From a virus (Duplodnaviria > Heunggongvirae > Uroviricota > Caudoviricetes), in IMG/VR virus record IMGVR_UViG_2877274432_000013: a stretch of DNA of 48,880 bases; one strand, given 5' to 3'. Made by a program: the position numbers. Shown here in pieces: positions 43,786 through 48,880 of the stretch. Each line of letters opens with the position of its first letter. Position 1 is the first letter of the stretch.

Positions 43786-46700
43786 TGATCAGGATTGCGG
43801 CGCTACTCTCAATACTCTTAACTACCAGCGCCAATTCTGAATGCTGGATTGTCACAAACCTGCACGGGTACGGGGCAATGAATGGCGATCGTTACGAGTT
43901 TACAAAAGACAGCACGGAAGATTCCGTTTTTCACGTAACAATAAATGGCGATAAATCATCAGTTTATGAATCAGTTTCTGGCGTCTATCCAGAGATGAAA
44001 TACACTGCTTTGTCATCGAACACTATGGTAGGAGAATACCAGTCTGGAGGAGGAATAACCGTTGAAACCTGGTCAATCACTACAGACAAAAAAGCTCTTT
44101 ACTCCAAAGTAATGAACATCCCAGGTATGCAACAACTTACATCAACCAAATCCTTTGTTGGTGATGTAGTCGGAACCTGCAACCAGTAATCCTCACCTCA
44201 ATTTCGACAACCAAAAAACAAACTATTTTCCGTTTAAAAACAATGGAGTTTGTTTTTCACGCCCATTTTTACAATATTTCTTGTTTACAACATACAATCT
44301 TTCTTGTAATTTTAAGCCATCAGCAGGACGCACTAACCACCATTGAAGGTGAGGCTCTTAAAAATTTAGCCCTGAAGAAGGGCAGCATTCAAAGCAGAAA
44401 GCTTTGAGTAGCGCGAAATGCAGCTGCAAGACAGCAACCGTGGAGATAAGCATCACGGCGCGTTACTCAAAGCTAACTGACAGGAGAATCCAGATGGATG
44501 CACAAACACGCCGCCGCGAACGTCGCGCAGAGAAACAGGCTCAATGGAAAGCAGCAAATCCCCTGTTGGTTGGGGTAAGCGCAAAGCCAGTTAACCGCCC
44601 TATTCTCTCGCTGAATCGCAAACCGAAATCACGAGTAGAAAGCGCACTGAATCCGATAGACCTTACAGTGCTGGCTGAATACCACGAACAGATTGAAAGC
44701 AACCTGCAACGTATTGAGCGCAAGAATCAGCGCACATGGTACAGCAAGCCACGCAGTGAAATGGGTGTGACTTGTGTTGGTCGCCAGAAAATGAAATTAG
44801 GCAGCAAACCACTTATTTGAGAGGAATTAATATGTCATCAATCCGCTTAACTACGAGAATGAAAGAGGAAATCGCTCGTAACGCTTTAATTAAGTCTGGG
44901 GTTTTCACTGAACTTGAAGAAGTAACAAAGTTAAAGAACCAGCTTGCACTTGACGCCAGAGTTATTGCGTTTGGCGGTAAAAAGAAAACTGAGGAAGTGG
45001 ATCAGTTATCATCCAAGTTGGTAGCTATAAGTGAAGAACTTGGAAAGATGGGATGTTCATTTTACTCATACGATGTTCGTTCTACTTCAATTTATCTTAC
45101 TGTATCTGGCAGAAGGGTTGGATGGCTTCCATATGGGAAAGACGGCAACGGCGAAGATATATTGCTCCCTACTCCGAACAAAGATAAATGCATGTTTAGC
45201 GCAGAACACGAAATAACAAAAAGGTTTGATGAAATCTGCGCATTGCAACAAAAACTTGAAGCCAAGAAAAAGGATATCGAATCAAATGTATGGGCTGCTT
45301 TGAACTCAGTCACAACAGTTAAGCGACTTATTGAAGTTTGGCCTGAAAGCAAAGAATTGCTACCAAAAGAAGCAGATAAAGCAAGTACAGCACTTCCTGC
45401 TTTACGGGTAGAAGATTTGAATAAGATGATTGGACTTCCTTCCGAGGCCGCATAGTCGGCCTTTATTTTTGGCACTAACAACAGAATAAACACTGCACTG
45501 TGTATTCATTCCAACGAGTGAATACACGGAGCAATGTCGCTCGTAACTAAACAGGAGCCGACTTGTTCTGATTATTGGAAATCTTCTTTGCCCTCTAATG
45601 TGAGGGCCTTTTTATATGCATACCAATAACGCTTCACTCGAGGCGTTTTTCGTTATGTATAAATAAGGAGCACACCATGCAATATGCCATTGCAGGGTGG
45701 CCTGTTGCTGGCTGCCCTTCCGAATCTTTACTTGAACGAATCACCCGTAAATTACGTGACGGATGGAAACGCCTTATCGACATACTTAATCAGCCAGGAG
45801 TCCCAAAAAATGGATCAAACACTTATGGCTATCCAGACTAAATTCACTATCGCCACTTTTATTGGCGATGAAAAGATGTTTCGTGAGGCCGTCGACGCTT
45901 ATAAAAAATGGATATTAATACTGAAACTGAGATCAAGCAAAAGCATTCACTAACCCCCTTTCCTGTTTTCCTAATCAGCCCGGCATTTCGCGGGCGATAT
46001 TTTCACAGCTATTTCAGGAGTTCAGCCATGAACGCTTATTACATTCAGGATCGTATTGAGGCTCAGAGCTGGGCGCGTCACTACCAGCAGATCGCCCGTG
46101 AAGAGAAAGAGGCAGAACTGGCAGACGACATGGAAAAAGGCCTGCCCCAGCACCTGTTTGAATCGCTATGCATCGATCATTTGCAACGCCACGGGGCCAG
46201 CAAAAAAGCCATTACCCGTGCGTTTGATGACGATGTTGAGTTTCAGGAGCGCATGGCAGAACACATCCGGTACATGGTTGAAACTATTGCCCGCCACCAG
46301 GTTGATATTGATTCAGAGGTATAAAACGGATGAGTACAGCACTCGCAACGCTGGCAGGGAAGCTGGCTGAACGTGTCGGCATGGATTCTGTCGACCCACA
46401 GGAACTGATCACCACTCTTCGCCAGACGGCATTTAAAGGTGATGCCAGCGATGCGCAGTTCATCGCATTGTTGATCGTCGCCAACCAGTACGGCCTTAAT
46501 CCGTGGACGAAAGAAATTTACGCCTTCCCTGATAAGCAGAACGGCATCGTTCCGGTGGTGGGCGTTGATGGCTGGTCCCGCATCATCAATGAAAACCAGC
46601 AGTTTGATGGTATGGACTTTGAGCAGGACAATGAATCCTGCACATGCCGGATTTACCGCAAGGACCGCAATCATCCGATCTGCGTTACCGAGTGGATGGA

Positions 46701-48880
46701 TGAATGCCGCCGCGAACCATTCAAAACCCGCGAAGGCAGAGAAATCACGGGCCGTGGCAGTCGCATCCCAAACGGATGTTACGGCATAAAGCCATGATTC
46801 AGTGTGCCCGTCTGGCCTTCGGATTTGCTGGTATCTATGACAAGGATGAAGCCGAGCGCATTGTCGAAAATACCGCATACACTGCAGAACGTCAGCCGGA
46901 ACGCGACATCACTCCGGTTAACGATGAAACCATGCAGGAGATTAACACTCTGCTGATTGCCCTGGATAAAACATGGGATGACGACTTATTGCCGCTCTGT
47001 TCCCAGATATTTCGCCGCGACATTCGCGCATCGTCAGAACTGACACAGGCCGAAGCAGTGAAAGCTCTTGGATTCCTGAAACAGAAAGCCTCTGAACAGA
47101 AGGTGGCTGCATGACACCGGACATTATACTGCAGCGTACCGGGATCGACGTGAGAGCTGTCGAACAGGGGGATGATGCGTGGCACAAATTACGGCTCGGC
47201 GTCATCACCGCTTCAGAAGTTCACAATGTGATAGCAAAACCCCGCTCCGGAAAGAAATGGCCTGACATGAAAATGTCCTACTTCCACACCCTGCTTGCCG
47301 AGGTTTGCACCGGTGTGGCTCCGGAAGTTAACGCTAAGGCGCTGGCCTGGGGAAAACAGTACGAGAACGACGCCAGAGTCCTGTTTGAGTTTACTTCCGG
47401 CGTGAATGTTACTGAATCCCCGATCATCTATCGCGACGAAAGTATGCGCACCGCCTGCTCTCCGATGGTTTATGCAGTGACGGCAATGGCCTTGAGCTGA
47501 AATGCCCGTTTACCTCCCGGGATTTCATGAAGTTCCGGCTCGGTGGTTTCGAGGCCATAAAGTCGGCTTACATGGCCCAGGTGCAGTACAGCATGTGGGT
47601 GACACGAAAAGATGCCTGGTACTTTGCCAACTATGACCGCGCATGAAGCGTGAAGGCCTGCATTATGTCGTGGTTGAGCGGGATGAAAATTACATGGCGA
47701 GTTTTGACGAGATGGTGCCGGAGTTCATCGAAAAAATGGACGAGGCACTGGCTGAAATTGGTTTTGTATTTGGGGAGCAATGGCGATGAAGCATCCTCAC
47801 GATAATATCCGGGTAGGCGCGATCACTTTCGTCTACTCCGTTACAAAGCGAGGCTGGGTATTTCCCGGTCTTTCTGTTATCCGAAATCCACTGAAAGCAC
47901 AGCGGCTGGCTGAAGAGATAAATAATAAACGAGGGGCTGTATGCACAAAGCATCTCCTGTTGAATTAAGAACGAGTATCGAGATGGCACATAGCCTCGCT
48001 CAAATTGGAGTCAGGTTTGTGCCAATACCAGTAGAAACAGACGAAGAATTTCATACGTTAGCCGCATCCCTTTCACAAAAGCTGGAAATGATGGCGGCGA
48101 AAGCAGAAGCAAACGAGAGAGACCCGGCATGACAACAACAGAATGCATTTTTTCTGGCAGCGGGCTTCATATTCTGTGTGCTTATGCTTGCCGACATGGG
48201 ACTTGTTCAATGACACCTCAGCAAGAAAACGCCCTTCGCAGCATTGCCCGTCAGGCTAATTCTGAAATCAAAAATGCCAGACAGCAGTTTCCGGATAAAA
48301 ACGTCGATGACATTTGCCGTAGCGTACTGAAGAAGCACCGCGAAACGGTAGCGCTGATGGGATTCACACCGACTCATTTAAGCCTGGCGATCGGCATGTT
48401 AAACGGCGTCTTTAAGGAACGGTGAACATGAAAGCAAAATCATCAGGGAGCTACAGGCTCCTTTTTTATTGTTCGCATTCACCCTCAAGCGTATTAACCA
48501 ACAATTCAGGGATTAATGAAAGATGGCAGACATCATTGATTCAGCATCAGAAATCGAAGAATTACAGCGCAATACAGCAATAAAAATGCGTCGTCTGAAC
48601 CACCAGGCTATATCTGCCACTCATTGTTGTGAGTGTGGCGATCCGATAGATGAACTAAGACGTCTGGCCGTTCAGGGTTGTCGGACTTGTGCAAGTTGCC
48701 AGGAGGAGATCGAACTTAAGAACAAACAATGGGATTGTGATGGCCTCAAAGCAGCAAATTTCAACATCGTCCAACTGAGGTGTAAAAATGTTCAGAATCA
48801 TTTTTCCTAACACCTGGTACGTCGACCACCACGGCACTCCCTGCAAAATCCTGCGTTCTACCCACAACAAAGTTCACTAC

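Follow-up and report, generated by a model that had tools for sequence, protein, structure and literature searches.

In bacteriophage lambda, the Red recombination genes belong to a pL operon with the gene order cIII-kil-gam-bet-exo. The same order is found on the + strand of the DNA analyzed here, a stretch of 48,880 nucleotides from a member of the Caudoviricetes (IMG/VR record IMGVR_UViG_2877274432_000013) that is referred to below as the window, and its Bet and Exo proteins, once repaired, are close to identical to those of lambda. The locus differs from lambda in that these genes lie within a mosaic Shigella flexneri gtrI prophage, whose tail module is of the myovirus type and in which an Nmad5 gene occupies the place of ea10/ral, and in that the bet and exo frames are broken as deposited. 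As a whole, the prophage resembles the SfI-type element at thrW/proA, the S. flexneri gtrI prophage, with gtrA, gtrB, and a type-specific gtr gene beside attP and int and with integration next to proA.

A further comparison of interest is with the errors of sequence assembly. Long-read consensus sequences are known to gather indel errors where coverage falls away, and the PacBio HGAP/Quiver type of contig-end homopolymer error resembles the pattern described below: indels only, mostly deletions in short G/C runs, within the terminal few kilobases. Untrimmed long-read contigs offer two other likenesses, a record start left unrotated within a repeat (here, a prophage) and redundant contigs deposited as “plasmids.” The difference from such described cases is that the platform and assembler of CP012735, probably a PacBio assembly, are judged from the error profile.

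RESULTS

Exact-product lookups placed the window in CP012735.1, the 4,698,633-bp chromosome record of strain 0228 (Shigella flexneri 1a) in assembly GCA_001578125.1, of which it represents the terminal 48.9 kb. This record terminates partway through the gtrI serotype-converting prophage, with bet and exo just 1.1 to 2.5 kb from its end. CP012735 has been described as serotype 1a strain 0228, China, 2002 (PMC5429569, PMC10323796), and the prophage region is the gtrI-containing “phage region 18” of that strain (PMC10323796). Illumina gtrI contigs of Vietnamese 1a isolates matched region 18 with 100% coverage and 99.98% identity, and the region-18 gtrI prophage is reported to differ from AF139596, the original gtrI element (PMC10323796). 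Compared with 5,426 complete RefSeq genomes of Escherichia coli, a collection that excludes Shigella, the window gave mosaic matches only, at about 96 to 97%.

The Red operon genes as deposited are as follows.

45677 to 45841, + strand: cIII, intact open reading frame of 54 aa, 54 of 54 residues identical to lambda CIII
45810 to 45953, + strand: kil, intact, 47 aa, translation identical to lambda Kil
45908 to 46324, + strand: gam, intact, 138-aa long form, 134 of 138 residues identical to lambda
46330 to 47114, + strand: bet, 785 bp versus the normal 786 bp, in a 155-aa N-terminal piece and a 106-aa C-terminal piece
47111 to 47789, + strand: exo, 679 bp versus the normal 681 bp, in three pieces of 129, 39, and 48 aa

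An initial annotation had taken gam, kil, and cIII to be intact, in agreement with the full length of the first and the identity of the other two to lambda, and the cIII stretch has zero differences from the Illumina contig BSBS01000027. Gene callers prefer a 98-aa form of gam. The bet frame as deposited breaks at codon 141, with a first piece at 46330 to 46797 (155 aa) that contains the RecT domain (PF03837) and a remainder in another frame that ends at 47114. The exo frame is broken twice, giving pieces at 47111 to 47500 (129 aa, containing the YqaJ domain, PF09588), 47527 to 47646, and 47643 to 47789.

Close bet-exo homologues number in the thousands among phage records and the 5,426 complete E. 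coli genomes, and all top matches to the 1,460-bp query cover 1,463 bp. Base-level alignment to three relatives and to lambda (NC_001416) identified exactly three one-base deletions in the window. Restoring the three bases yields a Bet of 261 aa, with 260 of 261 residues identical to lambda, and an Exo of 226 aa, with 221 of 226 identical. Single-base deletions in C runs of both genes, along with a second exo frame break near 47640, had been proposed in the initial annotation. The alignment to lambda bore out the deletions, the C runs in exo, and the second exo break, a C3-to-C2 change; the run in bet is of G on this strand, and the lambda sequence that had been given for this site, GGGCCCGTGG, is in fact GGGGCCGTGG.

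The three deletions in bet and exo are among six one-base indels at which the window is the sole odd one in a six-way alignment with five other sequences. These six sites and the end of the window are listed here, with distances measured to the end of CP012735.1.

46749 to 46751, + strand: bet break, CACGGGGCC to CACGGGCC, G4 to G3, 2,131 bp from the record end; lambda and all sister copies have GGGG
47462 to 47463, + strand: first exo break, CTCTCCCGATGG to CTCTCCGATGG, C3 to C2, 1,419 bp from the record end; all others have CCC
47637 to 47638, + strand: second exo break, TATGACCCGCG to TATGACCGCG, C3 to C2, 1,244 bp from the record end; all others have CCC
48148 to 48153, + strand: insertion, T5 to T6, 729 bp from the record end; all others have T5
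48431 to 48433, + strand: deletion, A4 to A3, 449 bp from the record end, apparently intergenic; all others have A4
48731 to 48733, + strand: deletion, G4 to G3, 149 bp from the record end; all others have G4
48880, no strand: end of the window, 2 bp short of the last base of CP012735.1, the record continuing with “AT” only

All of the differences private to the window over 14 kb were one-base indels in runs of 3 to 5 identical bases, with 0 substitutions. Over a longer interval, window positions 30006 to 48880 differed from the Illumina contig BSBS01000027 (18,875 bp) by 1 substitution and the 6 one-base homopolymer indels. Every indel (6 of 6) fell 149 to 2,131 bp from the record end and none occurred in the preceding 16.7 kb, a placement of all six in the 2.13-kb tail that has a probability of about 2 × 10^-6 if indels are placed uniformly. 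The indels were also blind to coding status: three are in bet and exo, one (T5 to T6) lies either upstream of a 71-aa hypothetical gene or in its N-terminal part, one is apparently intergenic, and the last shifts the end of a TraR/DksA-like gene, which is 95 aa here versus 72 aa in sister copies.

Allele-specific 45-mers unable to seed on the normal allele gave zero matches for either exo deletion and a single match for the bet G3 allele across the 5,426 complete E. coli genomes. In an exact-product lookup, the 129-aa Exo fragment was on record solely in CP012735.1, and the truncated 155-aa Bet was present in 19 contigs of other assemblies. These copies of the 155-aa Bet represent at least 5 different bet-exo haplotypes, each 22 to 36 substitutions from the window. 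A bet frameshift inherited as a real allele shared with these 19 contigs was considered and rejected, as the carriers are that distant, the window haplotype is 0 substitutions from its G4-bearing sisters, and only 1 of 5,426 genomes has the allele. In other assemblies the G4 run of bet slips recurrently, either naturally or through sequencing, and such slips lend no support to the window's own deletion being real.

A lookup of the prophage's Nmad5 protein revealed the same prophage region in two more records of GCA_001578125.1, CP012733.1 (41,686 bp, labeled circular) and CP012736.1 (24,419 bp), both deposited as “plasmid unnamed.” Bet (261 aa) and Exo (226 aa) are intact in both. CP012733.1 aligned to window positions 34830 to 48880 (14 kb) with 0 substitutions and 8 one-base gaps, and CP012736.1 aligned to the last 7.6 kb of the window, also with 0 substitutions and 8 one-base gaps. 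Beyond this assembly, BSCF01000066, like BSBS01000027 from an independent Illumina MiSeq assembly of a sister 1a isolate, had 0 substitutions relative to the window, and bet and exo are intact (GGGG, CCC, and CCC at the three sites) in two or more independent Illumina assemblies of sister 1a isolates.

In CP012733.1, int directly precedes gtrA, an attP-type junction, and the ends of the record overlap by about 680 bp; this record is a phage genome and not a plasmid. It carries about 74 further private one-base indels relative to the window, all of them restricted to the first 8 kb and the last 10 kb of the record; the 24 kb in the middle, which include its bet and exo, are clean. With the Illumina contig as arbiter over window positions 30006 to 36320, the window was right and CP012733.1 was wrong. 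CP012736.1 matches the window from cII onward and then runs into proA, and carries the right arm of the prophage and, after it, int, proA, proB, IS1, phoE, crl, frsA, and pepD. Because it carries proA, proB, phoE, crl, frsA, and pepD, its sequence identifies it as a chromosomal contig extending beyond the end of the chromosome record, with no plasmid involved. Two indels are private to CP012736.1, roughly 270 and 820 bp into the record. A pile-up of indels alone at contig ends was thus seen in every one of the three records: the chromosome record that supplied the window, CP012733.1, and CP012736.1.

DISCUSSION

The three frameshifts in bet and exo are, with very high probability, an artefact: consensus (base-calling) errors at a low-quality contig terminus. 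The Red genes of the strain 0228 gtrI prophage are most likely intact, functional, and ordinary, and the breaks represent no new biology. Errors are inferred here from comparison between sequences rather than seen in reads. The initial annotation had offered either prophage decay or homopolymer error; the intact copies and the end cluster of six indels favor the error branch and speak against decay. The loss of Red recombination that it drew from the breaks, if real, is unsupported, because the breaks belong to a terminal cluster of homopolymer indels and the same genes are intact elsewhere, in both same-strain and sister copies.

The most likely sequence of events behind this pattern begins with a break in the strain 0228 chromosome contig within the roughly 41-kb gtrI prophage. 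Phage DNA, also present in a circular or tandem attP form, would act as a long repeat, and the assembler would therefore have output three overlapping contigs for the region: the chromosome end (the window), the circular phage (CP012733.1), and the prophage-to-proA contig (CP012736.1). These overlapping contigs would have been left unmerged and untrimmed, in an assembly never circularized or de-duplicated across the prophage-sized repeat. Because read support would drop at contig ends, homopolymer lengths would come out wrong over the final ~2 kb of every contig. Of the six such errors in the chromosome record, three would land in bet and exo by this route, with the real prophage intact as in the other two contigs. 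We infer both the fall in coverage at contig ends and the long-read platform; the literature found for strain 0228 uses its genome as a reference without giving its sequencing methods.

Real pseudogenization is one alternative. According to this explanation, slipped-strand deletions in short G/C runs cost the strain 0228 prophage its Red recombination, as part of gene decay in Shigella, which is known to accumulate pseudogenes and IS elements. The window does contain copies of IS600 and IS629 and, in an IS629-like orfB, a 4-bp deletion that looks real, and the occurrence of the identical bet G4-to-G3 frameshift in independent assemblies, on other haplotypes, indicates that this change can arise, or be called, in other sequences. 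However, the substitutions that should accompany relaxed selection are absent, with 0 separating the window from its sister copies, and the lesion is not common to related strains or to contigs of the same strain, as CP012733.1, CP012736.1, and the sister Illumina assemblies are intact. The distribution of the indels, six in the last 2.13 kb after 16.7 kb with none, follows contig geometry, noncoding DNA was also struck, and the assembly's other contigs display the same effect at their ends. The exo alleles, for their part, are unique to CP012735.1 and absent from the 5,426 complete E. coli genomes. On this evidence real decay is highly improbable.

There is just as little chance that the chromosomal gtrI prophage copy truly bears all six indels as the result of a slipped-strand burst affecting a single copy within a tandem lysogen. 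If it did, Red would be lost in that copy, and an intact copy would persist as an episome or tandem partner.

The least probable explanation is that strain 0228 harbors two prophage copies (a tandem, a second copy, or a replicating episome), one intact and the one at the chromosome end decayed: the int-to-gtrA attP-type junction of CP012733.1 does need excised circles or a tandem lysogen, but divergence by six indels should bring some substitutions and none were found in 14 kb, the indels stay within the final 2.13 kb of the record instead of being dispersed through the copy, and CP012736.1, with its intact genes, represents the same chromosomal junction because it follows the window from cII on and then leads into proA. 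Both decay and a second copy must explain the absent substitutions, the 2.13-kb confinement, and the matching end effects.

Read as contig-end consensus errors, the bet and exo breaks have little biological weight, and their value lies in marking CP012735.1, CP012733.1, and CP012736.1 as records with data-quality problems. The last ~2 kb of CP012735.1 would hold at least 6 indel errors, creating false pseudogenes of bet, exo, and the TraR/DksA-like gene. CP012733.1 is a phage genome and CP012736.1 a piece of the chromosome, and a plasmid database lists both; pseudogene counts, prophage-integrity calls, and plasmid surveys built on this assembly inherit its errors.

One break in the window is of another kind. 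An exact-product lookup with the 222-aa fragment of the IS629-like orfB came back empty, probably reflecting the use of another start codon by gene callers. The initial annotation had likened the bet and exo breaks to the one in this gene; by alignment, the orfB break is not a homopolymer slip but a 4-bp deletion (ACGC), and it lies 42 kb away from the end of the record.

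Recurrence of the bet frameshift in other assemblies

An identical one-base deletion in bet (G4 to G3, window 46749-46751), predicting the same 155-aa product, was present in 19 contigs from unrelated assemblies, with short-read Logan assemblies among the sources. These contigs represented several distinct prophage contexts and at least five bet-exo haplotypes, and nearly all of them had an intact exo. Among 5,426 complete E. coli genomes, the deletion was found in one. Judged from these sequences, the bet G4 run is a recurrent slip site, at which cases elsewhere may be either real mutations or errors. 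One of the compared loci (L004 to L013), L011, reads ACCGGCC in place of ACGGGCC at the bet site.

Other differences within the window

The TraR/DksA-like zinc-finger gene (window 48523-48810) encodes 95 aa in the window versus 72 aa in all sister copies. Because the longer reading results from the sixth end-of-record indel (G4 to G3 at 48731-48733), the 95-aa form is a further false variant.

A disrupted gene also lies in a mobile element:
6448-7657, minus strand: IS629-like element, with the orfB break near 7131

Compared with E. coli IS629/IS1203 copies, this orfB has lost 4 bp (ACGC) and is split as a result; the homopolymer slip suggested in the initial annotation was therefore rejected as the cause. 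At 42 kb from the record end, and within contig sequence free of detectable consensus errors, the deletion is probably real.

Between N and cIII, the gtrI prophage encodes a putative nucleotide-modification gene:
44832-45455: Nmad5-family gene

In lambda, by contrast, this interval contains ea10/ral. Several lambdoid prophages of E. coli and Shigella also carry the Nmad5-family gene, together with different recombination modules.

Upstream of the gtrI prophage (window 1-9378), a second serotype-converting element has left a remnant, including:
1623-2795, minus strand: 390-aa acyltransferase
about 4848-5800, minus strand: integrase fragment sharing 97% identity with the phage int

Scattered among these are the IS629-like element and three IS600-type copies, each with a pair of ORFs of 100 and 272 aa.

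Misfiled records and the assembly break

Two further records of strain 0228, NZ_CP012733.1 (L023) and NZ_CP012736.1 (L034), were deposited as circular "plasmid unnamed" and are also listed that way in PLSDB. The first is a phage genome of ~41 kb with overlapping, error-rich ends, and the second is a chromosome fragment with proA, proB, phoE, crl, frsA, and pepD; the plasmid label is wrong for both. The phage record also contains a junction:
L023 19141-20883: int adjoining gtrA (int-attP-gtrA)

The arrangement in CP012733.1 implies either that the culture used for sequencing contained excised phage circles (spontaneous induction) or that the phage forms a tandem lysogen, and each would account for the chromosome assembly breaking within the prophage.
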